The translations under genes were made by a program, and so were the position numbers. This document shows, one piece after another, positions 1-19,957 of a stretch of 21,024 bases of DNA (position 1 is its first letter; every line of letters begins with the position of its first letter). The DNA is from Candidatus Falkowbacteria bacterium (GTDB lineage Bacteria; Patescibacteriota; Patescibacteriia; JACRDY01): the NCBI GenBank assembly GCA_016218485.1, contig JACRDY010000068.1, positions 1 to 21,024 on the forward strand, read 5' to 3'. A model generated the notes under the pieces. It worked only from the letters and a program-made list of their open reading frames with translations, was not told the origin of the DNA and did not search any database.

Positions 1-402
1 GTAATACAGAGACCTCAAGCGTTATCCGGACTTATTGGGCGTAAAGCGTCCGTAGACGGTTGAGTAAGTCAGTGGTCAAATCTTGGAGCTCAACTCCAAG
101 ACCGCCACTGAAACTGCTCGACTAGAGGCCGGAAGAGGCGAGCGGAATTGCCGGTGTAGGGGTAAAATCCGTTAATATCGGCAAGAACACCAAATGCGAA
201 AGCAGCTCGCTGGTACGGCCCTGACGTTCAGGGACGAAAGCGTGGGTAGCGAATGGGATTAGATACCCCAGTAGTCCACGCCGTAAACGATGGGCACTAG
301 GCATTGGAAGTATCGACCCTTTCAGTGCCGCTTCTAAAAAAGCAAACGCGTTAAGTGCCCCGCCTGGGGAGTACGAGCGCAAGCTTAAAACTCAAAGGAA
401 TA

Positions 403-447
<45 letters not shown>

Positions 448-524
448 GTAAGCGAGGAACCTCACCAAGGCTTGACATCCTAGGAATCCACTGGAAACAG
501 AGGAGTGCCTTCGGGAACCTAGAG

Positions 525-566
<42 letters not shown>

Positions 567-638
567 ACCGTTAAGTCGGGAAACGAGCGCAACCCCTATG
601 TCGTGTTACAAGTGTCACGACAAACTGCCCCCGCCTAA

Positions 639-773
639 GCGTATTTACTTCGTAAATGCGCAAATTACGAATTACAAATTACGAATTATTCAGTATCCAG
701 AAAAATCAAGATACCGAAATTCGTCATTCATAATTACTCATTCGTAATTTGCACGTAGCGAAGCGAAGTGCAT
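639..773 (+). repeat. ~135-nt AT-rich insertion in a terminal 16S helix, just upstream of the GGAAGGTGGGGATGACGTCAAGTC block (E. coli ~1160-1175 hairpin). Built from ATTACGAATT-type words and internally palindromic.
   Basis: The flanking stem CCCCCGCCTAAGCG / CATTTAGGCGGGGG encloses tatttacttcgtaaatgcgcaaattacgaattacaaattacgaatt...attcgtcattcataattactcattcgtaatttgc. The equivalent E. coli loop is ~10 nt. The word AATTACGAATTAC recurs in the intergenic spacer at 9316-9350. Confidence 0.5.
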
Positions 774-782
774 TTAGGCGGG

Positions 783-818
<36 letters not shown>

Positions 819-1005
819 CTTACGCCTTGGGCGACACACGTGCTACAATGGCCGGTACAACGGGTTGCCAAACCGCGAGGTGGAGCCAATCCCTAAAAAC
901 CGGTCTCAGTTCGGATTGAGGTCTGCAACTCGACCTCATGAAGTCGGAATCGCTAGTAAACGCGTATCAGCCATGGCGCGTTGAATACGTTCTCGGGTCT
1001 TGTAC

Positions 1006-2038
1006 TCGGATCGCCTGGCAGCGATAGAAAAAAAGACGTGACCTGCCTCCGTTATAACTACGGCAAGGCCAGGAAATCGTCTACAGCGAATTGGAACGCT
1101 GAAAGCAGAGGGCACGTTTTGTCCGCGAGGACAACACGAAGGGCCCATAAGCATTTTGCAGCTTGAGTCCACGTTATAATAATGAAAGAGGTTGACGACC
1201 CATCTGTGAGTACATGGGGAAGTCATCCAATACCACCAAAGCCCTTTCATTATCGGTGGACCGGAGATGTAAAAAAATGTTTTCTTTCGTAACCCAGGGA
1301 GATCTGGCACGAGTCCTCGGAGGTATCCGCGGGACAGAATTTCTGTTCTATGGTAAACTAACCCCGAGGTAGATTAAGAAGTGATTCTTAGTTAATGCTA
1401 TGCCAGAAGTCTGCAGAGCTCGTAGTACCAATCGCCGTCCATTTAGGCGCAATCCTAAATTACAACCGCCGATTGGGAAGGAGCAAATCCAACAAAAACC
1501 GCTTAATCCGCACTACATTGCGGGATTCATAGATGGCGAGGGATCTTTTTCGGTGAGTATTAATCATCATAAAACCCTCACCAGCGGTATTGAAATTAAA
1601 CCGGAGTTTGAAATAGAGCTTCGAGCTGATGATAGGGAAATTCTTGAGCGCATAGTCGCGACCATTGGCTGCGGAAAAGTCTACGATTGCTCATATGAGC
1701 GTTATGGATGGTTCCCGCATGCCAAACTTAAAGTGACGAGTGCAAAAGATTTAGAGGAAAAACTCTTCCCGTTCATTGATCAATACCCCTTGCAAGCAAA
1801 AAAGCGCCAGGTCTATGCCTTATTTCGCGAGATTGTTCTGATGGTGAGAAGTAAGAAACATCTTAGTGAAGAAGGATTGCAAAAAATTCAGCAACTGCGG
1901 AATGAGATGCGAAAATTTGGCAAAAAACATAATTTTGTTGTCAAATTTAACGCTCAGTTGGAAACCGCCAGGATACGGGAAAACCGTTCGTCCGGTGGTG
2001 TCTGACAATAAGTTAGTAATAATTTATTGCATCAAAAA
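1006..2038 (+). other. Group-I-like intron in the 16S rRNA near E. coli position ~1390 (between GGGYCTTGTAC and ACCGCCCGTC). Exact splice junctions were not resolved.
   Basis: The conserved 16S sequence stops at ...gggtcttgtac (1005) and resumes at accgcccgtcacgtcaagg (2039). The intervening ~1 kb carries a LAGLIDADG ORF, which is typical of rRNA group I introns. Confidence 0.6.
1400..2005 (+). CDS. LAGLIDADG homing endonuclease, single-motif type, intron-encoded
   Basis: A 201-aa ORF with the motif NPHYIAGFIDGEGSFSVSI (LAGLIDADG dodecapeptide with the catalytic acidic residue) in its N-terminal part. It is about the size of I-CreI-like homodimeric enzymes and lies wholly inside the 16S interruption. 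Confidence 0.8.
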   Translation: MPEVCRARSTNRRPFRRNPKLQPPIGKEQIQQKPLNPHYIAGFIDGEGSFSVSINHHKTLTSGIEIKPEFEIELRADDREILERIVATIGCGKVYDCSYERYGWFPHAKLKVTSAKDLEEKLFPFIDQYPLQAKKRQVYALFREIVLMVRSKKHLSEEGLQKIQQLRNEMRKFGKKHNFVVKFNAQLETARIRENRSSGGV

Positions 2039-2548
2039 ACCGCCCGTCACGTCAAGGGAGTCGGTAACACCCAAAGTCCACGTTCGTGGGCAAAGGTGGG
2101 ATCGATGACAGGGACGAAGTCGTAACAAGGCATCCGTAGCGGAAGCTGTGGATGGATCACCTCCTTTCTAAGGAGTAACTTCCCGTCAGGCCATTGGCCT
2201 GACGCGGACATACGTGGTCGGTCGGGTTCGATTTATCGGACTCGTTACTCCGGTTAGTTTGAACATATCCCCGTAACCGGCCGCAAGGTCTCTATGGGGT
2301 AAAGGTTTTTATCACTTTTGAGTCGTTAACAATAAAAAATCATCGGCCGATTCGGCGGATGATTTTTTAGATTCAAGATTTAGGAATTAAGAATTAAGAA
2401 TCCAGTGAACGGTTGTTTGAACATAAACACAACCCCACCCTGTCCCTCCCCCTTATGAATAAGGGGGAGAGACTGGTTCGACCATGGACTTCACTAAATT
2501 ATAATTTTAATAGACAAAAACAATCTTAACTGCTAAATTAGTGATACT

Positions 2549-3115
2549 ATGACCGCAGAAACCATGGACTGGCCGCTGCCGATCGCCGAAAAACAGTTTG
2601 ATAACGCCGCGGCAGTGGTAGCTGGGCTGTATACCATTCCCCGCACCGGCTGGGTGCAGCGCGGGGTGGACAACCCGGAAAGTGTCGGGCAGCATACGGA
2701 TGCGCTCGTTACTTTGGCGCGAGAATTAGGGCCGCAGATAGCCGGGCTGGATCAGAAAAAATTAGAACGAATGCTGCAGATTCACGATTGGCCGGAGGCG
2801 CTGGTTGGTGATCAGGTAGCTTTCAGCTCCACAGAAAAACAACAAAAATTTTTAGTAGAAAGGGCCGCGATGCAAAAAATTTGCGCTGCATTAGGAGACG
2901 AGGGAGCGGAAATTATGAACCTGTGGCTGGAGTACACTGATGGCCAGACGGGTGAAGCAAGTATTGCTAAGCAGCTGGATAAACTGCAGGCACTCATGCA
3001 GGCGACCACGTACGAGCGCGCCGGGCAGACGGTGCGAGCACGTGATTTCGTTCACTACCGAGCAATGATTACGCATCCCTTGCTGCGTCAGATGCTGGCT
3101 GAACTGGAAAAATAG
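2549..3115 (+). CDS. HD-domain phosphohydrolase (YfbR/HDDC2-like 5'-deoxynucleotidase family)
   Basis: A 188-aa ORF with an H...HD...D arrangement: RTGWVQRGV-NPESVGQHTDALVTLA ... QIHDWPEALVGD. Confidence 0.6.
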   Translation: MTAETMDWPLPIAEKQFDNAAAVVAGLYTIPRTGWVQRGVDNPESVGQHTDALVTLARELGPQIAGLDQKKLERMLQIHDWPEALVGDQVAFSSTEKQQKFLVERAAMQKICAALGDEGAEIMNLWLEYTDGQTGEASIAKQLDKLQALMQATTYERAGQTVRARDFVHYRAMITHPLLRQMLAELEK

Positions 3116-3337
3116 TTTTTGAAGTTAAAAAAATCGTTGGCAGTGTGCCGGCGGTTTTTTTAACCAGAGAGATAAGAATTAAGATTAAAGATTTAAGAAT
3201 AAATACACCATTCTTAAATTTTTAATCTTATCCCTTAATTCTCCCGCTACTTGACCAATTACCAATTACCAGTAAGATAAGGGTAGGTTTGTCACTATAC
3301 CGTATAATACGGTGCACCAATAGAGGAGGAGGTCACG

Positions 3338-4612
<1,275 letters not shown>

Positions 4613-4647
4613 GGGTCAGGAGGGGAAGTTTTTCGCGAAAATTACAG

Positions 4648-4684
4648 GCCGGGTTCGCAAGGACCCGGCTTGATCTATTTTTTA
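4648..4684 (+). terminator. Candidate intrinsic terminator after purD
   Basis: Hairpin gccgggttcgcaaggacccggc followed by tctatttttt. A second imperfect hairpin plus T-run follows at ~4708-4745. Confidence 0.4.
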
Positions 4685-4854
4685 CTGTTTGGTGGCATCC
4701 CTGCTCGACTCACCCCGCACAATGCGGAGTGGGTGGGTTTTTATTGAATTACTTAAATTCTAAATTCAAAATCCTAAATTCCAAATACTTAAATCATAAA
4801 TTCTAAACACGCAATACCGAGTTTAAGATTTTGGATTTAGGTAGTATGATTCAT

Positions 4855-4911
4855 CCAGCACCTTCCAGAATATCCCGCAGCAAGCTGACGGGATATTCTG
4901 GAAGGTGCTGG
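4855..4911. repeat. Perfect long hairpin / palindromic element, copy 1 of the CCAGCACCTT family
   Basis: ccagcaccttccagaatatcccg-cagcaagctgac-gggatattctggaaggtgctgg, a 23-bp perfect stem. It is itself flanked by an inverted pair of AT-rich word-repeat arms (4745-4800 / 4912-4965). Confidence 0.7.
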
Positions 4912-4990
4912 ATTTATTTAGGATTTTGAATTTTAGGTTTATAATTTAATTCTTAGTTATGGGTAAGTCTCATTCTATAAATTTTCAGAG

Positions 4991-5083
4991 AGCGGGTAGG
5001 GGGAATCGCCAGCTCATCGGCAAAGTCGTGAGCTGATCCGCTAAAGCCCGAAGGGCTATGAGCGGAAACCCCCCTCCAGTTTG
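4991..5083 (-). pseudogene. Partial second copy of the tRNA-Gly 3' portion (anticodon-loop 3' side through the acceptor 3' strand) with a 59-nt structured insertion in the T-loop
   Basis: Minus-strand reading: AAACTGG-AGGGG-GGGGG-TTT[CCGCTCATAGCCCTTCGGGCTTTAGCGGATCAGCTCACGACTTTGCCGATGAGCTGGCG]ATT-CCCCC-TACCCGCT. It matches tRNA-Gly segments on both sides of the insert. The insert has two hairpins, one with a UUCG tetraloop. Confidence 0.5.
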
Positions 5084-5101
5084 CCTGCCCGCCAGAGCCT
5101 C

Positions 5102-5173
5102 AGCGGGTAGGGGGAATTGAACCCCCCTCTCCAGTTTGGAAAACTGGAATAATAACCGCTATACGATACCCGC
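5102..5173 (-). tRNA. tRNA-Gly (anticodon TCC)
   Basis: Reverse complement: GCGGGTA-TC-GTAT-AGCGGTTA-TTAT-T-CCAGT-TTTCCAA-ACTGG-AGAGG-GGGGG-TTCAATT-CCCCC-TACCCGC-T. Cloverleaf with U73 discriminator, closely similar to bacterial tRNA-Gly(UCC). No encoded CCA. Confidence 0.85.
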
Positions 5174-5191
5174 TCAGGCTGAGGCAGGCGG

Positions 5192-5213
5192 GGAAAACTG
5201 GAATAATAATCGC
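5192..5213 (-). pseudogene. Partial copy of the tRNA-Gly D-loop, D-stem 3' strand and anticodon stem/loop up to the anticodon, lying just 5' of the intact tRNA-Gly
   Basis: Minus-strand reading: GCGATTATTATT-CCAGT-TTTCC, against the intact gene GCGGTTATTATT-CCAGT-TTTCC. Together with the 4991-5083 fragment it forms an outer tRNA-Gly-like copy split in the anticodon loop by [spacer + intact tRNA-Gly + spacer]. Confidence 0.45.
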
Positions 5214-5228
5214 TTACCATTATATACA

Positions 5229-5304
5229 TGGTCGGGCCGGCGAGGCTCGAACTCGCGACCTCCTGGTCCCAAACCAGGCGCGCTACCAACTGCGCTACGG
5301 CCCG
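5229..5304 (-). tRNA. tRNA-Pro (anticodon TGG), CCA encoded
   Basis: Reverse complement: CGGGCCG-TA-GCGC-AGTTGGTA-GCGC-G-CCTGG-TTTGGGA-CCAGG-AGGTC-GCGAG-TTCGAGC-CTCGC-CGGCCCG-A-CCA. C1:G72 is typical of tRNA-Pro. Confidence 0.85.
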
Positions 5305-5325
5305 ACCATGTTTTTAATGATGAAA

Positions 5326-5448
5326 GCCGGGACGCGCTTCACCCGCCCAAATTTAGCTCTCATCATTAATGGTATCCGCGATTACCCACCATCGTGTAAT
5401 CAAAACGGACAACGTTTTTGTACCGAGCTAAATTTGGGCGGGTAAACC
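5326..5448 (-). repeat. Copy 1 of a ~125-nt terminally palindromic structured element (candidate ncRNA or MITE), immediately 5' of tRNA-Pro
   Basis: Terminal inverted repeats CACCCGCCCAAATTTAGCTC ... GAGCTAAATTTGGGCGGGTAAACC (~20 bp) enclose internal hairpins (CAAAACG-gacaa-CGTTTTG; GATTAC...GTAATC). Two further copies at 5756-5879 and 6149-6273 show the same organisation. Confidence 0.7.
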
Positions 5449-5465
5449 AACTGCGCTACGGCCCG
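5447..5465 (-). pseudogene. Partial copy of the tRNA-Pro 5' end (acceptor 5' strand through the D-loop), abutting element copy 1
   Basis: Minus-strand reading: CGGGCCGTAGCGCAGTTGG, identical to the first 19 nt of tRNA-Pro, followed directly by the element's TTTACCCGCC end. Confidence 0.5.
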
Positions 5466-5543
5466 TTAATAACAATTAACAGTTAACAATTAACCAGTAA
5501 CAAACAACCAAATATGCTAGTCAATTGTTAAGCGTTAATTTGT

Positions 5544-5640
5544 TAACTGTTAATTGGTGCCGAGGGGCAGAATTGCCCGCTCGTCTTCGCGAGCGGATCC
5601 GCTCAGGCCGAATGGCCATGAGCGGAAACTGCCGACGCTC
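5544..5640 (-). pseudogene. Partial second copy of the tRNA-Phe 3' portion with a ~50-nt structured insertion in the T-loop, and an encoded CCA
   Basis: Minus-strand reading: ...GGCGTC-GGCAG-TT[TCCGCTCATGGCCATTCGGCCTGAGCGGATCCGCTCGCGAAGACGAGCGG]GCAATT-CTGCC-CCTCGGC-A-CCA. The insert shares CCGCTCAT-GCC-TTCGG-C-T-AGCGGATC with the Gly-copy insert. Confidence 0.5.
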
Positions 5641-5662
5641 CCGCCAACTATTCCAGGCAATC

Positions 5663-5734
5663 TGCCGGGGGGCAGAATTGAACTGCCGACGCCATGCTCT
5701 TCAGGCATGCGCTCTACCACTGAGCTACCCCGGC
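5663..5734 (-). tRNA. tRNA-Phe (anticodon GAA)
   Basis: Reverse complement: GCCGGGG-TA-GCTC-AGTGGTA-GAGC-G-CATGC-CTGAAGA-GCATG-GCGTC-GGCAG-TTCAATT-CTGCC-CCCCGGC-A. No encoded CCA. It is flanked by the inverted leader/trailer GCAATCT...AGATTGC. Confidence 0.85.
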
Positions 5735-5755
5735 AGATTGCAAATTATAGTTGTA

Positions 5756-5879
5756 GGCGGGACGCTCTTCACCCGCCCAAATTTAGCTCTAGTAATTAAT
5801 GGTATCTGTGACTCTCTCACGCGCGTGTAATCCAAGCAGATAACGCTTTTGTGCCGAGCTAAATTTAGGCGGGTAAACC
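5756..5879 (-). repeat. Copy 2 of the ~125-nt element, immediately 5' of tRNA-Phe
   Basis: Same terminal inverted repeats (CACCCGCCCAAATTTAGCTC...GAGCTAAATTTAGGCGGGTAAACC). The interior is divergent, but the internal hairpin is kept by different base pairs (AAGC/GCTT versus AAAACG/CGTTTT in copy 1). Confidence 0.7.
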
Positions 5880-5918
5880 AGCCCCGAAGGGGCCCCTTTG
5901 GGGCTGAGCTACCTCGGC
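5880..5918 (-). pseudogene. GC-rich double hairpin plus a 15-nt fragment matching the 5' end of a tRNA-Phe variant
   Basis: Minus-strand reading: GCCGAGGTAGCTCAG-CCCCAAAGGGGCCCCTTCGGGGCTGG. GCCGAGG is exactly complementary to the CCTCGGC acceptor 3' strand of the partial Phe 3' copy at 5544-5640, and not to that of the intact tRNA-Phe (GCCGGGG/CCCCGGC). Confidence 0.45.
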
Positions 5919-5966
5919 TTACCCTGATATCTGAACGGAATATAGTATTAGCAAATAGACTGCATA

Positions 5967-6048
5967 GGGCGTACTTGGATTCCCCGCCTGCCAGCGCCTG
6001 CGGCGCAGCCGTTGGCGGGCAGGGAACCAAGGACCTCGTCATTATCAG
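5967..6048 (-). pseudogene. Partial second copy of the tRNA-Ile 3' portion with a 42-nt GC-rich hairpin insertion in the T-loop
   Basis: Minus-strand reading: CTGATAA-TGACG-AGGTC-CTTGG-TTC[CCTGCCCGCCAACGGCTGCGCCGCAGGCGCTGGCAGGCGGGG]AATCC-AAG-TACGCCC. The insert sits at the same T-loop position (after TTC) as in the Gly and Phe copies. Confidence 0.5.
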
Positions 6049-6066
6049 CTCCGCCCCGCACCAAAA

Positions 6067-6140
6067 TGCGCGTACTTGGATTTGAACCAAGGACCTCGTC
6101 ATTATCAGTGACGCGCTCTAACCAACTGAGCTATACGCGC
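6067..6140 (-). tRNA. tRNA-Ile (anticodon GAT)
   Basis: Reverse complement: GCGCGTA-TA-GCTC-AGTTGGTTA-GAGC-G-CGTCA-CTGATAA-TGACG-AGGTC-CTTGG-TTCAAAT-CCAAG-TACGCGC-A. No encoded CCA. Confidence 0.85.
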
Positions 6141-6148
6141 ATATTGCT

Positions 6149-6273
6149 GCGGGGTGAACGCTCTTCACCCGCCCAAATTTAGCCTTAGTAATTAAGGGTA
6201 ACCGCGATTACTCACCATCGTGTAATCTAAGCGGACAACCTTTTTGTACCGAGCTAAATTTAGGCGGGTAAAC
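6149..6273 (-). repeat. Copy 3 of the ~125-nt element, immediately 5' of tRNA-Ile
   Basis: The terminal inverted repeats and interior are highly similar to copy 1. It is followed at 6274-6313 by the same GC double hairpin and a 5' tRNA fragment GGACGTATAGCTCAG, which pairs with the TACGCCC strand of the partial Ile 3' copy. Confidence 0.7.
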
Positions 6274-6420
6274 CAGCCCCGAAGGGGCCCCTTTGGGGCT
6301 GAGCTATACGTCCGTCATCTAGAGTTTACTGCTAGGGTAGATAAAAATAACTACTCGGCAGTCTAATACAAAACGGTAAAAAAAGCAAGGTACGAGCAGG
6401 CTGATTTAGTCTTAATTTGA

Positions 6421-6449
6421 TTGATTAATTTAGATATTTCGGCTAGTAT
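6421..6449 (+). promoter_or_regulatory. Sigma70-like promoter for mnmA
   Basis: TTGATT, 17-nt spacer, TAGTAT, ending ~15 nt upstream of the ATG at 6464. Confidence 0.45.
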
Positions 6450-6463
6450 GCTAGAGCAGTTTT

Positions 6464-7564
6464 ATGACTCAAAAGAATAAGAAACCCACAGTCATCGTGG
6501 CCATGTCCGGCGGCGTGGATTCGTCTGTCGCGGCCGCTTTACTACAGCGGCAGGGCTATGACGTGCGCGGCGTGCATATCAAGATGTGGTCGGATCCGGA
6601 TATCCCCTGTTTGTTTACTTTTGACCGGATTGACGCCATGAAAGTAGCGATCCAGCTCGGCATTCCTTTCACCACTTGGGATCTGACGCGCGAATACCGC
6701 AGCGCGGTCGTGGACTACATGATCCGCGAGTTTAAGGCCGGTCGGACGCCCAACCCGGACGTGATGTGTAATAGCGAGATCAAGTTCGGGGTGTTTTTGG
6801 ATAAAGTTTTAAAAACGGGCGCGGAGTATTTGGCGACGGGGCATTATGTGAAAAAAGCGCAAAGCGCAAAGCGCAAAGCACAGAGCCAGTCCACGATACA
6901 AAAATTGTATATCGCGGCGGATGGGAATAAGGATCAGAGCTATTTTCTCTGGCGGCTGAATCAGCAGCAGCTGCGGCATAGCCTGTTTCCCCTGGGTGGT
7001 CTGACTAAGCCGCAGGTGCGAGTCCTCGCCAAACAGTTTAAGCTGCCTACCGCTGACAAGCCGGACTCGCAGGGTATCTGCTTCATCGGCGAGATTAACC
7101 TCAAGGATTTCCTGGAACACTACATCCCCCGCCGTCCGGGCACAATCGTGACCACGGACGGCCGCGTACTCGGCCATCATGAGGGTCTCCCCTTCTATAC
7201 CATTGGTCAGCGTGAGGGGCTGGGTCTGGGCGGTGGCATCCCCTACTATGTCGTTGCCAAAAATTTTAAAACCAATCAGCTGATTGTTGGCAGCCGGGGC
7301 GCGGCTGAACTGTTTCTGCCGAGTTTGCGGTTCACCGCCGCCAATTGGCTACTTGGCAGCGAGCCGAAACTGCCTCTGATCTGCCTGGCGCGTATCCGCT
7401 ACCGTCAGCCGCTGGAGCGTTGTCGGGTCAAACGCATCAGCGGTCGCGGCATTCGGGCGATCTATCAAGCGAAATTTACCGAGCCGCAGCGGGCCATTAC
7501 TCCCGGTCAGTCCATTGTGTTGTACAGGAGCGAGGAGATGATCGGGGGCGGGATTATTATTTAG
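6464..7564 (+). CDS. mnmA: tRNA-specific 2-thiouridylase (tRNA (5-methylaminomethyl-2-thiouridylate)-methyltransferase)
   Basis: A 366-aa ORF. PP-loop VAMSGGVDSSV near the N-terminus. Collinear with MnmA throughout (DQSYFL, GICFIGE, ITPGQS..GGGII C-terminus). It contains an ~8-codon in-frame insertion encoded by GCGCAAAGCGCAAAGCGCAAAGCACAGAGC at ~6856-6890. Confidence 0.85.
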   Translation: MTQKNKKPTVIVAMSGGVDSSVAAALLQRQGYDVRGVHIKMWSDPDIPCLFTFDRIDAMKVAIQLGIPFTTWDLTREYRSAVVDYMIREFKAGRTPNPDVMCNSEIKFGVFLDKVLKTGAEYLATGHYVKKAQSAKRKAQSQSTIQKLYIAADGNKDQSYFLWRLNQQQLRHSLFPLGGLTKPQVRVLAKQFKLPTADKPDSQGICFIGEINLKDFLEHYIPRRPGTIVTTDGRVLGHHEGLPFYTIGQREGLGLGGGIPYYVVAKNFKTNQLIVGSRGAAELFLPSLRFTAANWLLGSEPKLPLICLARIRYRQPLERCRVKRISGRGIRAIYQAKFTEPQRAITPGQSIVLYRSEEMIGGGIII

Positions 7565-7700
7565 TCCTTAGTCCATAGTCCCTAGTCCTTAGTCCATAGT
7601 CCTTATTCCATAGTCCTTAGCGTATAGTTTTAGCGTGAAAGCCTCCACTAAGTACTAGGGACTAAGGACTATGGACTATGTATAGGACTATGTACTATTT
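7564..7700. repeat. Palindromic spacer built from TAGTCC/TAGGAC-type 6-9-nt words
   Basis: gtccttagtccatagtccctagtccttagtccatagtcc...actagggactaaggactatggactatgtataggactatg. The two arms are reverse complements of each other. Confidence 0.55.
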
Positions 7701-7817
7701 CCTCTAATTTTGCTATACTAATACTATAGCTATCAGGACATTGACGCTTTTCCAGTCGTGTGCTAACCTATTGGCAAACAAAAGCCCTATGATACGGGTT
7801 TTTTATTTTAAGTCAGT

Positions 7818-7920
7818 CCAGCACCTTTCATCATTTTTATCTAAAATTTGCCATTATATTAGCTAAAATAAGATTAATTATGGTTGATTTATTTTAGATA
7901 AAAATGATGAAAGGTGCTGG
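7818..7920. repeat. Long perfect hairpin, copy 2 of the CCAGCACCTT family, with an AT-rich interior; it ends exactly at the start codon of the next gene
   Basis: ccagcacctttcatcatttttatctaaaat...attttagataaaaatgatgaaaggtgctgg, an ~30-bp perfect stem. Confidence 0.65.
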
Positions 7921-8523
7921 ATGGCTAAAAATATGCAAAAATCACGGATATTGCAAAAACTACGTAAATATTGGAGAAAATTAGGCGCTTTTTTGGTGCA
8001 CATGCATGTGCGTCGGGTTGAATTGGCTGTTTTTGCTGTAATTTTATTTGAATTTTCTTTTCCTCAAGTATCATTAGCTCAAGAATTGCAGGCTCCGGCC
8101 AGCTATCAGACCGAGAGCGTGATGTATGAAACAGTGATTCGGGATGCCGCTCCGGTTATCAGCGACGCGGCTGTATTGGCTGATTTTAATAATAGTCTGC
8201 CAATGGCGGCTGATCGTCAGCCGACCCGTACCATCTGGGTGACGGTAACGGCCTACTCCAGCACTCCGGATCAGACTGACGACAGCCCGTGTATTACGGC
8301 TAACGGGTTTGATGTCTGTGAACACGGGCAGGAGGACGTGATCGCGGCCAATTTTTTGCCCTTTGGTACCACGGTCAAAATGCCGGAGTATTTCGGCGAC
8401 ACAGTCTTTACTGTGCAGGATCGGATGAACGCGCGCTACTACAGCCGCGTTGATGTCTGGATGCAGAGCCGGGAGGCGGCTAAACAATTCGGCGTGCGGA
8501 CGCTTAAGGTTGAGGTTTATTAG
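7921..8523 (+). CDS. Secreted 3D-domain protein (MltA-like fold, cell-wall binding/remodelling; related to YocH/YuiC C-terminal domains)
   Basis: An N-terminal hydrophobic signal/anchor (LAVFAVILFEFSFPQVSLA). The C-terminal region has VTVTAYSSTPDQTDDSPCITANG ... VIAANFLPFGT ... FTVQDRMN...VDVWM, with three spaced Asp residues. The true start may be the internal ATG at 7933. Confidence 0.6.
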   Translation: MAKNMQKSRILQKLRKYWRKLGAFLVHMHVRRVELAVFAVILFEFSFPQVSLAQELQAPASYQTESVMYETVIRDAAPVISDAAVLADFNNSLPMAADRQPTRTIWVTVTAYSSTPDQTDDSPCITANGFDVCEHGQEDVIAANFLPFGTTVKMPEYFGDTVFTVQDRMNARYYSRVDVWMQSREAAKQFGVRTLKVEVY

Positions 8524-8587
8524 CTACAAATAGCGAATAGCACATAGTCAATAGTACATAGCGCTTGAGAAGGGCGTTTTTTTATAT

Positions 8588-8700
8588 GGCTACATTATCA
8601 CATTGCTACATTGCCAAATTGCTAAATTGTCACACTGTTGTGTGGGTTATTTAGCAATTTGGCAATGTAACAGTTTAACAATTTAACAATGTAGCAATTT
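8588..8700. repeat. Large palindrome of ATTGC/ACATTG-type words
   Basis: A perfect 17-bp inverted repeat, ttgccaaattgctaaat / atttagcaatttggcaa, sits inside longer symmetric arms (ctacattatcacattgctacattgcc ... ggcaatgtaacagtttaacaatttaacaatgtagc). Confidence 0.55.
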
Positions 8701-8745
8701 TGCTTTTCCCTTTTACTCCCGCGTGAAATACGGTATAATATTTTT

Positions 8746-9246
8746 ATGCAGCTATTTGTTAAAAAATTCACCAAAAACGGCCTGAAAATAGGTTTTTTTG
8801 TGGTGGCGCTGTGTTTGATGTTGGCGCTGGCATTGCCGGTGCTGGCCGTTACTGGACAGGGTGGTGACACGGGGCAGGGGGATACGAGTGGGCAGGGTAA
8901 TGACACCGGATCGGGTGGTGATACGGGACAAAATGAAGGGGGTAAGGCCAGTATTATATCCCTGGAAGATCCATTGAATGTAAAGACGGATGCAACAGGG
9001 CCATTGTCCAACATAGCTATTGTGCAGGAAATAATTCTCCGTTTGGCTAAATTCCTGATCGCGCCCATCGGCGCTATTGCTTTCCTCTGTTTGGTGATTG
9101 GCGGGTTTTATATGATTTTTTCCGGGGGTAATGAGGAGCGGGTTAAACAGGGCAAAGATATTATTGTCTGGACCGTGGTGGGGATTATCGTGATTTTTAG
9201 CGCCTACGCGGTGATTAATTTTGTGCTGACGGCGGTGAGAGGATAG
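8746..9246 (+). CDS. Secreted small membrane protein with TrbC/VirB2-like conjugative-pilin topology (signal peptide, Gly/Asp/Thr-rich low-complexity segment, two C-terminal TM helices)
   Basis: A 166-aa ORF. Signal peptide FFVVALCLMLALALPVLAVTG, then repeats QGGDTGQGDTSGQGNDTGSGGDTGQNEGG, then two hydrophobic helices separated by GGNEERVKQGKD. TATAAT at 8733-8742. The family assignment rests on topology only. Confidence 0.35.
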   Translation: MQLFVKKFTKNGLKIGFFVVALCLMLALALPVLAVTGQGGDTGQGDTSGQGNDTGSGGDTGQNEGGKASIISLEDPLNVKTDATGPLSNIAIVQEIILRLAKFLIAPIGAIAFLCLVIGGFYMIFSGGNEERVKQGKDIIVWTVVGIIVIFSAYAVINFVLTAVRG

Positions 9247-9478
9247 CACAAAGCTCAGAGCACAAAGCGCAGAGTTCAGAGCGCAAAGCACGTTTCAAAA
9301 GAGCGTCTTTTTTTAATTAGGAATTACTAATTACGAATTACGAATGAGATTACCAAAGAGCGGCTTTTGGCAGGCTAGGAACATGTAACATGTAGCATAT
9401 AGCATGTAACTCCATACAAGCTACACGCTACATGCTACAAGATTTTCTCTCATTTTAAACACTTTTATATACTTTTGA

Positions 9479-9507
9479 TTGACTTTTTATTTAAAATATG
9501 CTATATT
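9479..9507 (+). promoter_or_regulatory. Sigma70-like promoter followed by a ~175-nt structured leader upstream of the 9685 gene
   Basis: TTGACT, 17-nt spacer, TATATT. The leader contains hairpins CACACTGCAGAAGTGTG, CAACCGAA..TTCGGTTG and CCCCGCAAGGGG (GNRA loop). Confidence 0.5.
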
Positions 9508-9684
9508 GACAAATCACACTGCAGAAGTGTGTTTGTATACAGAACCTTGAAAACGGCGTTTATGACCAATAAGCGCTTACAAATATGCAACTCAAGTACA
9601 ACCGAAGAGTCAGTTTTCGGTTGAGTGAAATAGTACAGTCAACAATTCCCCGCAAGGGGTGCAACGGTTTTCGGAGGTGTCATC

Positions 9685-10698
9685 ATGATGCGATTGATTG
9701 AGTCTCTTGATGCGAAAGTCCAAAAGTGGTTCGGCATTCAGCTGATCAAGCTGTGGGACGCGAAAAGCCAAGGCAATCCCCCAGTCATTGTTCGGCTGGA
9801 TGAAAAGCACGAGATCGTTTTCCGATCCGTCTTCGGCAGTGACGACCACACCTTCAGTGGTTACCGGATAGAAGAACCCACCTATTGCTGGTGGGTCCCG
9901 GTCTTCCGTGACGAATACGTCGCCACGATTTTTACCGGGGAGTACTCCGCACCGTTCAATACGCAAGGATTTGAGGCCAACTCCGGCGTGGAAAATATAA
10001 ATGACCTGGAAAAGGAATTCAAGGGCATGATGGGCGCTGCCGCGTGGGAGAAGGCTCGTAAGGAACTGGAAGAGGTGATACAGCGTCGTCTGAAAGGCGG
10101 CGCGCCGAAAGTGACGATATACGTCTCCGGTACGTTGCAGCTCGATGTTGAAGGCATCATCAACGCCAGCGCGAAATACGCCACTCGCTTGTTCAAGAGC
10201 GGCAACGCGGATCAGATCATCAACGGCATGATGGAGCTCGCGCTCGCCCATGTCTTCGGCAGCATGATGCTGGAATCAGCCCTGATCCTCGCGGGTCATC
10301 GGCGGGAAAAGACGATCAAGCAGCTGATGAACTTGATGAATTTCGGCTGCCTGGAAGTGGACGAAGGTGGCGAGCCGATCGAGGCGACGCGGGTCACGGG
10401 TATCAAAGGTCTGCGGTACTACGGTCTCCGTCTGGTGCAGTTCGGTATCAAGCGGATTGTGCCGCCGGAGGAGATTGAGGAAGCGATCCGTCAGGAAGAA
10501 AGCGCCGAACGAGAGCGCGTGGCCGATAAAGCCAAGGCTGATGTCGCGGCAATGATTCACGATCTTCCAGCGGCGTTGGCGTTTACGGTTATGCACCTGA
10601 CCGATGCCCAAGTCAAAGGCCCGGGTCTCGAAATTTCAGTCAGTAAGAATAAGAAGGGAAAGTCCGGCGGTGCAGCAGCGAGTGACTCCACCGATTAA
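9685..10698 (+). CDS. Hypothetical soluble protein, 337 aa, no recognisable domain
   Basis: Long ORF with a GGAGGTG RBS 6 nt upstream and coding-like composition. No motif recognised by eye. Confidence 0.6.
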   Translation: MMRLIESLDAKVQKWFGIQLIKLWDAKSQGNPPVIVRLDEKHEIVFRSVFGSDDHTFSGYRIEEPTYCWWVPVFRDEYVATIFTGEYSAPFNTQGFEANSGVENINDLEKEFKGMMGAAAWEKARKELEEVIQRRLKGGAPKVTIYVSGTLQLDVEGIINASAKYATRLFKSGNADQIINGMMELALAHVFGSMMLESALILAGHRREKTIKQLMNLMNFGCLEVDEGGEPIEATRVTGIKGLRYYGLRLVQFGIKRIVPPEEIEEAIRQEESAERERVADKAKADVAAMIHDLPAALAFTVMHLTDAQVKGPGLEISVSKNKKGKSGGAAASDSTD

Positions 10699-10754
10699 CA
10701 CCAATTCGGGTCGCGGGCTTAAACCCCCGCGACCCGCTCAATCAGGAGTAGTCA

Positions 10755-11753
10755 ATGGAAACAGGAAAAGTCCCATATAGTGAGCCAGGTGAGGTAGATG
10801 CGAAGAAGAAGAAAGATCAATCAGGAGGGAGCATCTACGGCTGGACTATCGCCGGTTTTGCCCTGCTGGCCCTGGTGGTTGTGCTGGTGATCGTGGTAGG
10901 TATCGTGGCGGGGATCGTCGGGGCAATTTCCTGGCTAGCTTTAGGGCTCCTCAGCGTACATATCTCCGCGATTGTACTGCTGGTGGGCTGGCTGTACCGC
11001 CAAAAGGCATTTAGCGCCGCATGGGCAGTGATCTGGGCCGCCATTCTGTTTTTCGGCATCCCAATATGGCTCTTGAAGTATAGTGCCTGGTCGCCTGAGG
11101 CGGCCAAGATGATCAGCGTGTACATTGAGACCGAGGCGGACAAGCAGCGTGAGCTGCCAAACCCGCCGAGTGAGACCTATGAGGAACCAACTTTTCAGGA
11201 CTTCGTCCGTGAGGCCGGAGATCTAGGAGATGGTGAGACCACCACGTTTGAGGAGCCGGCATTTCCGATTGACACGTCAATCCATTGGAAGACCCAGCGA
11301 GGCGTGTGGTGCGTGTACTTTGATCCGAAGACGGATCCGTACCCGTGCCGCGGCAATACCGGCCTGCCCGGTCATGGCGACTTTCGTCTGAAGAACGACG
11401 GGCCGCACTTCACCATCAAGGCCAAGGGGCCGGTGGAGGGGCTGATATTCAGCTACACGGCCAAGACCGGGACTCACCCGGTGCGCAAAGACGACGCGAC
11501 CATCGCGGCCGAGCGCAGGGCCTATGAAGAGAAGGCGGCCGCGATCAAGGACAAGGCCGCGGTTCAAAAAAAGCCGCCGGACGAGTGGTACCAGAATCCA
11601 ATAACATGGATCGTTGTGGCGGTGCTTGCGCTGGTGATCGGCCTGATCATCAGCCGGGTTCGCGCTGGCGGTCGGGTCAAGGCCGCTCAACGTGCGGCAG
11701 ACCAGCAGGCCGTATTGGCACAGTTGGCAAAGGGCGAGGTCACGGTGGAGTGA
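10755..11753 (+). CDS. Hypothetical integral membrane protein (about 4 N-terminal TM helices, a central soluble domain, a C-terminal TM helix), probably co-transcribed with the 9685 gene
   Basis: A 332-aa ORF with an AGGAG RBS. A stable hairpin cgggtcgcgggcttaaacccccgcgacccg with no T-run sits in the 56-nt gap after the upstream gene. Confidence 0.6.
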   Translation: METGKVPYSEPGEVDAKKKKDQSGGSIYGWTIAGFALLALVVVLVIVVGIVAGIVGAISWLALGLLSVHISAIVLLVGWLYRQKAFSAAWAVIWAAILFFGIPIWLLKYSAWSPEAAKMISVYIETEADKQRELPNPPSETYEEPTFQDFVREAGDLGDGETTTFEEPAFPIDTSIHWKTQRGVWCVYFDPKTDPYPCRGNTGLPGHGDFRLKNDGPHFTIKAKGPVEGLIFSYTAKTGTHPVRKDDATIAAERRAYEEKAAAIKDKAAVQKKPPDEWYQNPITWIVVAVLALVIGLIISRVRAGGRVKAAQRAADQQAVLAQLAKGEVTVE

Positions 11754-11833
11754 TGAACTATAGCCCCGGGGGTACGCCCCCGGGCTCACGACTGACCTGG
11801 TTCATATACCAGATCAGTCACACGCAAAGGACG

Positions 11834-11857
11834 GTGGGCCATTTCCCACCGTTTTTT
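11834..11857 (+). terminator. Intrinsic terminator after the 10755 gene
   Basis: ggtgggccatttcccacc + gtttttt. A second hairpin, ccccgggggtacgcccccggg, lies at 11773-11795. Confidence 0.6.
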
Positions 11858-11879
11858 CATTGGCAAAATCTTGGTAACA

Positions 11880-11907
11880 AAAAACCGTCTTGATCAGAGA
11901 CGATTTT
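11880..11907 (-). terminator. Intrinsic terminator directly after the tRNA-Cys 3' end
   Basis: Minus-strand reading: AAAAAATCGTCTCTGATCAAGACGG + TTTTTT. Confidence 0.55.
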
Positions 11908-11982
11908 TTGGAGGCCTGGAGGGGAATTGCACCCCTGCATAGAGGTTTTGCAGACCTCTGCCTTACTGCTTGGCTACCAGGC
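11908..11982 (-). tRNA. Candidate tRNA-Cys (anticodon GCA), CCA encoded, with a non-canonical T-loop
   Basis: Reverse complement: GGCCTGG-TA-GCCA-AGCAGTA-AGGC-A-GAGGT-CTGCAAA-ACCTC-TATGC-AGGGG-TGCAATT-CCCCT-CCAGGCC-T-CCA. Perfect 7-bp acceptor, and U73 as expected for Cys. The T-loop UGCAAUU lacks the usual T54-Psi55-C56 (it has G at 55), and the D-stem has 3 bp plus an A-A. Confidence 0.55.
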
Positions 11983-12087
11983 CGTAAATTTACGTGGTCT
12001 TACTATAGCAGGATAAACCTTTAAAATCAAGAGTTTTTGCTGATTAAGAGTTTAGAAATATTTTAGATAGGCTGTGGTAGACTATTT

Positions 12088-12116
12088 TTGACAGGGTAAC
12101 TACCCTTTGCTATAAT
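12088..12116 (+). promoter_or_regulatory. Consensus sigma70 promoter for the 12133 gene
   Basis: TTGACA, 17-nt spacer (containing the palindrome GGGTAACTACCC), TATAAT, then ~16 nt to the ATG. Confidence 0.6.
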
Positions 12117-12132
12117 TCTTAAGCTATCGTTT

Positions 12133-12597
12133 ATGGGCAACACTAATCAACAATTTGAATTATTAGCCATTAAACAAGATTTGGCGGAATTTCGTCAAGA
12201 AAATAACGAACTGTTTTTGGCTATTAAGCAAGATCTAGATCGGATGGCCACCAAGGACGATCTCCAAGGCGTGAAGGACGATCTCCAAGGCGTGAAGGAC
12301 GATCTCCAAGGCGTGAAGGACGATCTCCAAGGCGTGAAGAAGGACTTACATAGGTTCGCCACCAAAGACGACCTATTAGCATTCGCCACCAAAGACGACA
12401 TGGAACATTTTCGGGATGAATTAAAAGAAGAAATTCATCAGACATTTGATGTGCTAATTACCGGGCAGGATAAAATAGTGAAGATACTGATGGATCAGAA
12501 AGCGGAAAACGCGGCCAATCAATCAGCGCACGGACGTTTCCAGACCACGCTGGATACCCACGAACGGAGAATAGGTGTTTTGGAAAATCCTGTTTAG
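12133..12597 (+). CDS. Coiled-coil repeat protein with KDDLQGV heptad repeats
   Basis: A 154-aa ORF with ATKDDLQGV-(KDDLQGV)x3-KKDLHRFATKDDLLAFATKDDMEHF. The heptad periodicity suggests a coiled coil. Confidence 0.6.
   Translation: MGNTNQQFELLAIKQDLAEFRQENNELFLAIKQDLDRMATKDDLQGVKDDLQGVKDDLQGVKDDLQGVKKDLHRFATKDDLLAFATKDDMEHFRDELKEEIHQTFDVLITGQDKIVKILMDQKAENAANQSAHGRFQTTLDTHERRIGVLENPV
12253..12336 (+). repeat. Perfect 4 x 21-nt tandem repeat (aaggacgatctccaaggcgtg) inside the 12133 CDS
   Basis: Four identical consecutive units encoding KDDLQGV. Degenerate units follow (aagaaggacttacat..., accaaagacgacctatta...). Confidence 0.9.
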
Positions 12598-12625
12598 TGT
12601 ATTTGCGGGCAATGGTATAAAATCG

Positions 12626-12654
12626 TCCCCCGATCCATCGGGGGCGGTTTTTTT
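12626..12654 (+). terminator. Intrinsic terminator after the 12133 gene
   Basis: cccccgatccatcggggg + cggttttttt. Confidence 0.65.
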
Positions 12655-12656
12655 AT

Positions 12657-12713
12657 CCAGCACCTTTCAGAATACCCCGTCAGCTTGCCGTGGGGTATGC
12701 TGAAAGGTGCTGG
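12657..12713. repeat. Perfect long hairpin, copy 3 of the CCAGCACCTT family, immediately upstream of polA
   Basis: ccagcacctttcagaataccccg-tcagcttgcc-gtggggtatgctgaaaggtgctgg. It is homologous to copy 1 (4855-4911) with compensatory substitutions on both arms. Confidence 0.7.
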
Positions 12714-12750
12714 ATTTTATTACCCCAAAAATGGTAAAATAGGCCTATCT

Positions 12751-15549: not shown

Positions 15550-15655
15550 GTTCATAAGTTCATTAGTTGGTAAGTTTATTAGTTTATTAGTTGGAAAGTT
15601 TAAAAGTTAACCCCGTCGGATCGCTCTGGCGGGGTCTTGCTGTTCGTGCGGGGGT

Positions 15656-15769
15656 TCATGGCAGGACGCCCAGGACGTTGCAGATGGCGTTGGCCACGAA
15701 TGTGAAGACGATCGCGCCGATGGCGGTTTGCCACGCCATCACGAACATGGATTGCGTGAGATGATGCAT
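15656..15769 (-). CDS. Possible small hydrophobic peptide (37 aa), immediately downstream of the 15779 lipoprotein gene
   Basis: Minus-strand ATG at 15769: MHHLTQSMFVMAWQTAIGAIVFTFVANAICNVLGVLP-stop. It is followed by the hairpin CCCCGCCAGAGCGATCCGACGGGG and a T-rich tract. No clear RBS. It is below the ORF-track length cutoff. Confidence 0.25.
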   Translation of the reverse strand: MHHLTQSMFVMAWQTAIGAIVFTFVANAICNVLGVLP

Positions 15770-15778
15770 GGGTTGCCC

Positions 15779-16192
15779 TTACTCGCAGACGCGGTCGCGT
15801 GCCTTGATGGCCTCGGCCAGTTTGGCTTCCGTGAGGAGACGCTGCTTGTCCAGGCGCGTGGCCTCGCTGTAGAGCCGCTGCCACTCCAGCTCGATGGCGG
15901 GGTAGTTGGCGTTGTATCGCGACGAGGTGATGTCCTTGGCGACTTGGTAGTCGGCCAATTTGAGGTCCGCCGCTTTGGCGGAATCCTTGGCTTTGTCAGT
16001 GAGGTCGTCCAGGTCGCCCTGGAGTTTGTCGGCCTGCTTGTCGGCCGCGGTGCAGGCGGCCTTGGTGTTCGCGACCGACTCTTTTCCGATCATGTTGTCC
16101 ATGGCCACAGCCTGCTGGTTGGTCGCGGCGCAGCCGTTGACGACGATTCCCAGGCAGCACATCAGAACGAACAGAACGAGCGCGCGTTTCAT
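15779..16192 (-). CDS. Small lipoprotein, paralog A (signal peptide, lipobox VNGC, coiled-coil body, C-terminal Cys)
   Basis: MKRALVLFVLMCCLGIVVNGCAATNQQA.... GGAGGAGG RBS. A conserved 5'UTR hairpin CGTCCAATCCCGGACG sits directly upstream of the RBS. Confidence 0.7.
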   Translation of the reverse strand: MKRALVLFVLMCCLGIVVNGCAATNQQAVAMDNMIGKESVANTKAACTAADKQADKLQGDLDDLTDKAKDSAKAADLKLADYQVAKDITSSRYNANYPAIELEWQRLYSEATRLDKQRLLTEAKLAEAIKARDRVCE

Positions 16193-16379
16193 CGGTTTCT
16201 TCCTCCTCCGTCCGGGATTGGACGGTTATGTTTGCGATTGTGTATCTTATGACATTTTCGTCGGGCTGTCAATTATGGTTGAGATAAAAATAATGTCTGG
16301 AAAATAGGGCTTTTAGAAATGGTTGAGCCCCGCCGGAACGATCCGATGGGGCTCTGTTGCGCGCTGATTCGCGATGGAG

Positions 16380-18030: not shown

Positions 18031-18096
18031 TGCCTTCTCCTTGAGCGTGAAAGGGTTATGTTCTTTGTACCATACTAGGGGAAAAGGTCAAGATTA

Positions 18097-19796: not shown

Positions 19797-19893
19797 AGGT
19801 TTATCTTTAATTATCCAGCATACTCGCAGAGGAGTTTTTGGTCAATTATAATCAGACAATAGTGGTTAATTCTATTGGTATAGTTGATTAAAT

Positions 19894-19922: not shown

Positions 19923-19957
19923 ATTACTGTCGTCGGAAATTGTTGACGAGTTCACCT

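Follow-up and report, generated by a model that had tools for sequence, protein, structure and literature searches.

We asked what kind of element interrupts the 16S rRNA gene of a Candidatus Falkowbacteria bacterium, a member of the Patescibacteria, or Candidate Phyla Radiation (CPR). The gene lies at the start of contig JACRDY010000068.1 (assembly GCA_016218485.1), of which we analysed positions 1 to 21,024 of the forward strand; this whole stretch of 21,024 nucleotides (nt) is called the window, and all positions refer to it. A first-pass annotation had read the insertion as a group-I-like intron encoding a LAGLIDADG endonuclease. Our analysis indicates that it is very probably a group II intron with an IIC-like backbone, lying between C1397 and A1398 of 16S rRNA (E. 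coli numbering), whose domain IV holds a gene for a single-motif LAGLIDADG protein where a reverse transcriptase (RT) would usually be encoded. Placing the insert in group II rather than group I changes the splicing chemistry to be expected, the diagnostic models that apply and the precedents that are relevant.

The junction in the decoding centre

The bacterial small-subunit rRNA model RF00177 aligned to 1-1007, with 846 bits, and to 2039-2167, and to nothing between. Direct reading agreed with the alignment: the conserved exon 1 strand ...GAAUACGUUCUCGGGUCUUGUACUC, that is ...GGGTCTTGTAC-TC, terminates at 1007, and exon 2 restarts with ACCGCCCGTCAC (ACCGCCCGUCAC...) at 2039. The insert thus occupies 1008-2038 (1031 nt, + strand). 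The interruption of about 1 kb seen in the first pass was borne out, as was its end at 2038, but its start had been set at 1006, 2 nt too far left. With our E. coli numbering anchored on the well-known positions C1400, G1401, C1402 and A1408, the junction falls at C1397|A1398, in the single-stranded strand of the decoding centre. The identical junction was found in at least 73 independently assembled contigs, and such recurrence of the same insertion and junction is not due to chance.

Uninterrupted 16S alleles bear on the same point. When metagenome contigs were scanned for CTTGTACT-N-ACCGCCCGTCA, N was C in all of at least 120 uninterrupted alleles (CTTGTACTCACCGCCCGTCA), and none of them had the U or A at 1397 that a junction shifted by 1 nt would give. 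The predicted ligated product, GGGUCUUGUACUC-ACCGCCCGUCAC, is therefore a real and common 16S sequence, which validates the junction.

Group II domains and exon-binding contacts

Domain anatomy was worked out on alignments of 69-73 homologous Patescibacteria introns; the alignment of domain V (D5) was free of gaps, and the 5' part was aligned with MAFFT L-INS-i (69 introns). Helices were assigned by hand and their pairs counted, with controls in which the partner strand was slid. An automatic RNAalifold prediction from the MAFFT alignment (5' 500 nt) was partly garbled, and this manual assignment and pair counting took its place. All six group II domains (D1-D6) were located (Table 1), and the closing helices of D1, D2, D3, D4 and D5 were 98-100% paired and showed compensatory changes. 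For I(i), I(ii), Ia, Ic, Id(i), Id3, D2, D3 and the D4 base, pairing was 89-100% with several compensatory pairs, against 33-90%, mostly 35-70%, in the slid controls. Within D1, the I(i), I(ii), Ia, Ic base, Id(i) and Id3 helices were 92.8-100% paired with 3-10 compensatory pairs each. The corresponding figures were 97.9% and 4 for the D2 basal stem, 100% and 2 for the outer and 88.9% and 7 for the inner helix of D3, and 98.6% and 5 for the D4 basal stem. In D2, hairpin 1370-1397 is the first stem in the alignment to RF01998 (group-II-D1D4-1), while the internal loops of D3 are GUAGUA and GAAG, and a single base, A1963, forms the linker between D4 and D5 (J4/5). A pairing of the 5' CUGGCA with UGCCAG at 1401-1406 was dropped; the I(i) and D2 basal stems both covary.

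Hairpin Ia of the window holds, inside its conserved UGNAANU loop, a 33-nt stem-loop (1041-1073) that most family members lack. Two other loci, L066 and L017, also have insertions at this position, which suggests that the Ia loop is a tolerated expansion site in the ribozyme.

The catalytic hairpin D5 was consistently paired across the family: 1008 of 1008 sequence-by-pair cells were standard, and 7 of its 14 pairs had two-sided compensatory changes. Sliding by 1-3 columns gave pairing of 30-52%, with no compensatory change at five slides and one at -3. D5 contains a CGC triad (1966-1968), in which G1967 forms a wobble with U1996 in 71 of 72 sequences, as well as a 2-nt bulge on the 3' strand (U1988-C1989), an invariant bulged A1970 and a GAAAA loop (1979-1983). 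In 53 of 67 distinct D6 regions of the family, the fold left an A unpaired 6-9 nt before the intron's 3' end, most commonly as a single bulge at -8. In the homologous fold of the window D6, C2030 and A2031 are bulged, and the candidate branch point is A2031, at -8.

Contacts between intron and exon, and between the intron's core and its 3' end, were conserved as well. The hexamer GAGUAC occurs once in the window intron, as exon-binding site 1 (EBS1), and is the exact complement of the exon end GUACUC, the intron-binding site (IBS1). All six EBS1-IBS1 pairs were standard in 100% of 69 introns, and in one locus, L080, both sides had changed (exon GUACAC, loop GUGUAC). Many family members also have a GAGUAC close to their 5' end; it was rejected as EBS1, since inspection places it in the I(ii) strand and the window lacks it. 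The gamma candidate, position 1412, is the variable base of AAGUC-N-GCAG in the linker between D2 and D3 (J2/3). With the last intron base, 2038, it forms A-U in 64-67 introns and U-A in 4-5, with one A-A exception. The U-A introns are those of the window and its closest relatives, which form one clade, and the switch may be a single evolutionary event. Group II introns end in AY by consensus, and at family level the 3' end agrees: 67 of 74 introns end in AU, and those of the window's clade in AA, which is compensated at gamma; the unusual AA end of the window intron is thus accounted for by U1412.

Table 1. Coordinates of the 16S exons, the intron and its parts, and neighbouring features in the window
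Feature	Position	Strand	Basis or remark
16S exon 1	1-1007	+	RF00177; 5' end cut by window edge (model position 520 onward); ends at E. coli C1397
IBS1 (GUACUC)	1002-1007	+	Last six bases of exon 1
Group II (IIC-like) intron	1008-2038	+	1031 nt; boundaries kept in 73 loci
Domain I	1014-1298	+	Helix table, 69 introns
I(i)	1014-1018/1294-1298	+	99% paired, 4 compensatory pairs
I(ii)	1022-1031/1280-1289	+	96% paired, 10 compensatory pairs
Ia	1035-1038/1078-1081	+	Pair counting
Ib	1084-1088/1097-1101	+	Pairs only at one-column slide
Ic base	1110-1113/1143-1146	+	Pair counting
Ic1, GCGA loop	1115-1124/1129-1138	+	Pairs only at one-column slide
Id(i)	1154-1159/1269-1274	+	Pair counting
Id3	1199-1201/1216-1218	+	Pair counting
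EBS1 (GAGUAC)	1208-1213	+	Terminal loop of hairpin Id3
Domain II	1303-1407	+	Basal stem 1303-1309/1401-1407; inner helices 1315-1320/1364-1369 and 1373-1380/1385-1392
LAGLIDADG homing endonuclease reading frame, single-domain, 201 aa	1400-2005	+	Pfam LAGLIDADG_1, PDB matches
J2/3 linker (AGUCUGCAGAG)	1408-1418	+	Conserved core of RF01998; U1412 is the gamma candidate
Domain III	1419-1483	+	RF01998; helices 1419-1421/1481-1483 and 1428-1434/1470-1476; distal hairpin 1441-1460
Domain IV	1488-1962	+	Basal stem 1488-1493/1957-1962 around the endonuclease-coding body
Domain V, catalytic hairpin	1964-1999	+	14 pairs, covariation
Domain VI	2003-2034	+	10-bp stem 2006-2015/2020-2029, GUAA loop; basal pairs U2003-A2034, G2004-C2033, A2005-U2032
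16S exon 2	2039-2167	+	RF00177; from A1398 via helices 44 and 45 to the 3' end ...GGAUCACCUCCUUU
HD_3-domain protein	2549-3115
PurD	3338-4612
Four tRNAs: Gly, Pro, Phe, Ile	5101-6141	minus
MnmA	6464-7564
SPFH protein			Downstream of 16S, listed between MnmA and tRNA-Cys
tRNA-Cys	11909-11983
PolA	12685-15549
TrmB-like regulator			Downstream of 16S, listed last

Class and subclass of the ribozyme

RF01998 matched 1370-1483 with 48.3 bits, against a gathering score of 35, and 17 of 18 related loci gave a match in the corresponding position. On the subclass, the literature is divided. Zimmerly & Semper 2015 place all group II introns encoding a LAGLIDADG homing endonuclease (LHE), the bacterial one included, in IIB1, whereas Liu et al. 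2026 (GBE, PMC13190283) assign the bacterial rns-1396 family to IIC and count among the IIC traits a single-A linker between domains IV and V, a single Ic arm (no IC2) and no EBS2. The window intron has the CGC triad and the single A1963; only one Ic arm was found in it, and no EBS2 was identified. A comparator, L081, came from a BLAST search of the intron core against plasmids, as a single 28-nt match in a Monoglobus plasmid adjoining a gene for a 'group II intron maturase-specific domain'. L081 has a terminator-like hairpin and a T-run upstream, starts with GUGUG, carries a maturase open reading frame (ORF) and matches RF02001 and RF01998, while RF00029 falls just below its gathering score (37.7 vs 40); its D5 is AACCGCCGUGUACCGAACGGUAUGCACGGUGGUGUG, with a CGC triad. 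Judged by these sequence features, L081 is a textbook RT-type IIC intron. It has in common with the window family a 5-bp I(i) stem followed by CA, the GGUGNAAGUCC hairpin, a GAGG/GAGA junction between D1 and D2, the J2/3-D3 core recognised by RF01998 and a GAU/AAU 3' end, and the D5 flanks AACCGCC...GGUGGUGU are identical in L081 and the window intron. Because layout, core and D5 flanks are as in L081, and J4/5 is a single A and the Ic arm single, we call the backbone IIC-like. The likeness has limits: there is no RT (the ORF in D4 is a LAGLIDADG gene), no adjacent terminator hairpin, and IBS1 has 6 nt, not 3-4. Canonical IIC introns (their crystallised archetype is that of O. iheyensis) encode an RT/maturase, begin with GUGYG, sit after terminator hairpins, use a 3-4-nt IBS1 and spread by retrohoming, whereas the window intron has an LHE, a GGRUS start, an rRNA site, a 6-bp IBS1, and a bulged A and pentaloop in D5.

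We next weighed other classes. That LAGLIDADG ORFs mostly reside in group I introns, that such introns are common in CPR rRNA genes according to Tsurumaki et al. 2024 (J Bacteriol, PMC11270868), and that they are present at other 16S sites of loci L072 and L077 would all suit a LAGLIDADG-encoding intron of group I, or of a group-I-like type, spliced by guanosine-initiated transesterification. The test proposed in the first pass, a search with the group I model RF00028 for P1-P9 together with a terminal G, nevertheless gave no match in 950-2200 even at E<=10, nor any at the 1397 site of 18 related loci. RF00028 did match, at Rfam significance, at other, upstream 16S positions (L072:1107-1385 and L077:424-692), showing that group I introns are detectable in these genes. 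Group I introns have a terminal G, whereas the window intron ends in A and the family's in U, as AA or AU. The six domains of group II, the EBS1-IBS1 pairing and the gamma-gamma' pair are all present with covariation, and Tsurumaki 2024 reports group II, not group I, at this site. We therefore regard a group I intron as all but refuted, and the nearness to group I insertion sites at ~1389-1391, noted in the first pass, has no bearing on a ribozyme of group II; those sites (S1389-1391) are eukaryotic, and the precedents that count are the CPR site 16IS9 and Thiomargarita rns-1396, each a group II intron with an LHE. The same element on a IIB1 rather than a IIC backbone is a less distant alternative, although still unlikely. 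It would agree with the statement of Zimmerly & Semper 2015, with the 6-bp IBS1-EBS1 pairing and a 5' exon without a terminator hairpin, and with the protein, whose nearest solved relatives are fungal mitochondrial LHEs; the LHE tree of Liu 2026 sets IIB1-LHE introns beside rns-1396. The D5 triad and the flanks identical to those of a textbook IIC intron argue against IIB1, as do the 5' D1 layout, D1/D2 junction and J2/3-D3 core common to L081, the single-A J4/5, the one Ic arm found and the lack of an identified EBS2 (the criteria of Liu 2026), and the assignment of rns-1396 to IIC in that study.

Several observations weigh against an active group II intron of IIC type. RF00029 (D5/D6) had no match in the window even at E<=10; this is explained by an atypical, IIC-type D5, the genuine IIC intron L081 being sub-threshold as well. 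D5 itself is non-canonical: its 5' strand has a bulged A, its loop has 5 nt and its triad is CGC, not AGC. The 5' end of the intron is GGAUC (GGGUS in the family), never the canonical GUGYG, with G1 kept and U2 replaced by G. In D1, helices Ib, Ic1, Id(ii) and Id2 were supported only after a one-column slide, an offset due to indels in the window. The minimum free energy (MFE) fold of the window D6 (-8.1 kcal/mol) lacks the bulged A2031, and the fold that has it (-7.8 kcal/mol) has a weak basal stem. Neither epsilon-epsilon' nor EBS3 could be placed: the partners that a scan proposed for intron position 3 were numerous and confounded by phylogeny, and IBS3 (A1398) is invariant. The CPR enzyme that has been assayed, I-ShaI, comes from a 23S group I site and not from this 16S site (Tsurumaki 2024). 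The non-canonical 5' end and D5, the RF00029 result and the weak D6 basal stem would also fit a decayed group II relic or a spacer resembling an intervening sequence (IVS), excised by a host RNase (e.g. RNase III) without ligation to leave a fragmented 16S rRNA, or a ribozyme that is inactive and depends on host factors. Many organellar group II introns have lost self-splicing, and CPR rRNA genes carry IVS-type insertions, one of them in this same gene at 626-780. We nevertheless consider this quite unlikely. The ends of the insert pair at -21.2 kcal/mol, against a shuffled mean of -21.9, while those of the helix-40 insertion at 626-780 pair at -48.6; an RNase III-type IVS was rejected on this end-pairing, which is no better than that of shuffled sequence, and on the presence of a ribozyme. 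The first-pass annotation had named an IVS as the alternative should group I core elements be lacking; they are lacking, but an IVS is not what is present. In at least 69 lineages the catalytic and exon-binding elements show clear purifying and compensatory selection, the compensated gamma U and gamma' A of the window's own clade would be unexpected in a dead ribozyme, and a break at 1397/1398 would sever the decoding-centre strand. Finally, the contig is metagenome-assembled and some related loci have implausible taxonomic labels, as a chimera of a 16S fragment with an unrelated mobile element might; such an assembly or binning artefact is hardly credible, given that at least 73 assemblies, made independently in many studies, agree on the junctions to the base and that intron elements pair with the flanking exon.

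The endonuclease gene, its relatives and the family in Patescibacteria

The ORF is the sole long one on the sense strand of the insert and has YIAGFIDGEGSF at residues 39-50. Pfam found one LAGLIDADG_1 domain (E 5.8e-20, residues 40-146, nt 1517-1837), and matches in the PDB were to the I-OnuI/I-SmaMI family (E down to 9e-39), with the ORF aligning to each half of double-motif enzymes. This shows a single-domain enzyme and upholds the single-motif endonuclease of the first-pass annotation. The protein has 734 homologs, and those with a name are Patescibacteria. GFIDGEGSF is nearly invariant in 20 homologs: nine positions are invariant, among them G46-E47-G48, whose E47 is the acidic residue of the motif, and conservation of D45 is at least 90%. 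Single-motif LAGLIDADG enzymes are generally homodimers, and by analogy the product would cleave the intron-less allele site-specifically as a homodimer.

The reading frame runs into the ribozyme at both ends. Its AUG (1400-1402) lies on the 3' strand of the D2 basal stem, with U1401 and G1402 paired and A1400 opposite C1310, just outside. The N-terminal ~30 codons overlap D2-D3, with codons 2 to ~28 in J2/3 and D3, and the C-terminal ~14 codons (ETARIRENRSSGGV) overlap D5, the stop codon falling at the base of D6. Both tails (MQEVSR..ST and ETARIRENRSSGGV) are conserved among homologs, and the nucleotide changes beneath them are compensatory changes of the RNA, which indicates that the constraint there is on the RNA. 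RNA structure appears to dictate the conserved peptide tails, and folding of the ribozyme would compete with translation. Some homologs stop before D5 or lack the AUG (L030 has AAACAAGA in its place), so that on sequence comparison the protein tails are probably dispensable.

These features suggest how the element might work. The precursor rRNA would fold into D1-D6, and the EBS1 loop GAGUAC would hold the 5' exon end GUACUC. An active site formed by D5, with its CGC triad and 2-nt bulge, and J2/3 would then promote attack on the 5' splice site by the 2'-OH of the bulged A2031 in D6 or by water. The freed exon 1 would attack the 3' splice site, positioned by the gamma-gamma' pair U1412-A2038, and ligation would restore a continuous decoding-centre strand, ...GUACUC-ACCGCCCGUCA... 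Self-splicing with exon ligation is thus predicted from the sequence, and Brown et al., as cited in the introduction of Tsurumaki 2024, reported that CPR rRNA insertions are removed from transcripts. The ORF could be translated from the precursor or from the excised intron, and the endonuclease would be expected to dimerise and cut intron-less 16S alleles (GTCTTGTACTC|ACCGCCCGTCA; target GGGTCTTGTACTCACCGCCCGTCACG), with repair copying the intron in. Spread would then be by DNA homing and not by retrohoming; Tsurumaki 2024 likewise concludes that the site-1400 elements move by DNA homing, since none encodes an RT.

CPR 16S insertions at ~1400 were reportedly first noted by Brown et al. in 2015, and the rns-1396 intron of the giant sulfur bacterium Thiomargarita is said to have been reported by Salman et al. 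in PNAS in 2012. Tsurumaki 2024 describes 53 group-II-like insertions at the CPR site 16IS9, at position ~1400, 39 of them with a single-domain LAGLIDADG_1 LHE and none with an RT, and gives 16IS9 as the only site of group-II-like 16S insertions in CPR. The window element matches these in host clade, 16S site, Rfam group II signal, single-domain LAGLIDADG_1 and lack of an RT, and it is one of the 16IS9 insertions. That study calls them 'reminiscent of group II introns' on Rfam evidence and, in the parts considered here, gives no domain structure, junction, EBS/IBS or subclass, which are worked out here.

The second close relative is the rns-1396 intron of Thiomargarita and other Thiotrichaceae, a IIC intron with a single-motif LHE in domain IV (Liu 2026). 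Its 16S site is within 1 nt of that in the window, and the IIC backbone, the single-motif LHE in domain IV, the lack of EBS2 and the single-A linker between domains IV and V are the same. The rns-1396/16IS9 family is marked by insertion at 16S ~1396-1400, a single-motif LAGLIDADG_1 ORF in domain IV, no RT and an EBS1 loop with GUGWGUAC, and the window copy agrees, with a junction at 1397|1398 and an ORF in D4 that has a single Pfam domain. The rns-1396 EBS1 loop contains GUGUAC, as in L080, where the window has GAGUAC. Table S4 of Liu 2026 gives the loop as UGUGUGUACC for Thiomargarita and AAUGUGUACA for its single CPR entry, Saccharimonadota CP065013, against CUGUGAGUAC in the window; Thiomargarita was compared here by published description, not by alignment. 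Liu 2026 places the rns-1396 junction at A1396|C1397, whereas the CPR copies unambiguously have C1397|A1398; the two sites could be identical if the Thiomargarita intron ends in C. The main text of that study confines the family to Thiotrichaceae, whereas we found 73 to at least 120 loci and 734 protein homologs in Patescibacteria.

LAGLIDADG group II introns of fungal mitochondrial rRNA genes (Toor & Zimmerly 2002; Mullineux et al. 2010, rns-952) are described by Liu 2026 and Zimmerly & Semper 2015 as IIB1 and mostly double-motif; the ORF is often in domain III, and 5' splice sites are often shifted and branch points often lost. They resemble the window intron in combining a group II ribozyme with a related LHE (I-OnuI/I-SmaMI type) in an rRNA gene. 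Unlike them, it is IIC-like and single-motif, has its ORF in domain IV and keeps a candidate branch-point A.

To describe the family, we scanned one genome per species and used the best 80 of 120 confirmed loci encoding relatives of the ORF, nearly all labelled Patescibacteria. Boundaries were shared by 73 of the 80: exon ...UUGUACUC, intron GGGUC, GGGUG or GGAUC ... AU or AA, exon ACCGCCCGUCA. The nearest loci are labelled Magasanikbacteria and other Patescibacteria, in agreement with the CPR host proposed in the first pass. Intron lengths ranged from 913 to 1430 nt. Three longer introns (L021, 1430 nt; L035, 1342 nt; L054, 1089 nt) exceed the usual length by 100-450 nt, with the extra sequence in D1 upstream of J2/3, and this could represent nested insertions. 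In L072 and L077, one rRNA gene hosts both intron classes, group I upstream and group II at 1397. Three loci (L010, L074 and L011) combine a CPR-type 16S gene and the intron with Bathyarchaeia, Thermoplasmatales or Gammaproteobacteria names of metagenome-assembled genomes, probably from mis-binning. Many intron-bearing loci are labelled 'uncultured Candidatus Saccharibacteria', whereas Tsurumaki 2024 reports nearly no Saccharibacteria rRNA insertions with introns or homing endonuclease genes; these and the other odd labels look unreliable.

The window 16S gene carries a second insertion at 626-780 (~155 nt), at the tip of helix 40, where the Rfam alignment has 145 extra bases at model position ~1158. 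It folds as one long, nearly perfect hairpin (MFE -67.6 kcal/mol, z = -10), contains no ORF and no ribozyme match, and looks like an expansion segment or RNase III-type IVS. No 23S rRNA gene lies downstream of 16S in 2168-21024, and its absence from these remaining 19 kb indicates that the rRNA genes are unlinked. This part of the window is ordinary chromosomal context (Table 1).

These features bear on how such organisms are detected. As the first-pass annotation had warned, universal primers are affected: the 1392-1406 primer site is physically split by the intron. Intron-bearing 16S genes have U at E. coli 1396 (1006 in the window; GUACUC), where A is usual, A1396 occurring only in L080. 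U1396 is also found in at least 120 uninterrupted environmental 16S sequences (L082-L161 among them) and adds a mismatch to the 1392-1406 universal primer regardless of the intron. With a split primer site, an intron of ~1 kb and the 155-nt helix-40 insertion, this 16S gene is easily missed or misassembled.

The element class is already published (16IS9, Tsurumaki 2024; rns-1396, Salman 2012 and Liu 2026), and the window element is no new kind. What may go beyond the published accounts is the covariation-tested domain model of the CPR copies, the C1397|A1398 junction, the gamma-gamma' compensation, support from real data for IIC over IIB1, and far more copies in Patescibacteria than in Thiotrichaceae. 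We lean, if only slightly, towards a broader view in which 16IS9 and rns-1396 are one IIC-derived, LHE-mobilised family, with its main reservoir in Patescibacteria (hundreds of lineages) and not in Thiotrichaceae, a true junction at C1397|A1398, a fixed 5' GGRUS, and an endonuclease frame threaded through functional ribozyme RNA, starting at the D2 stem, with its N-terminus in J2/3-D3 and its C-terminus in D5. If so, RNA structure would determine the two peptide tails, and an RNA under translation could not at the same time fold as a ribozyme. The family-level structure bears on the dispute between IIB1 and IIC, on the exact splice junction and on the claimed restriction of the family to Thiotrichaceae.

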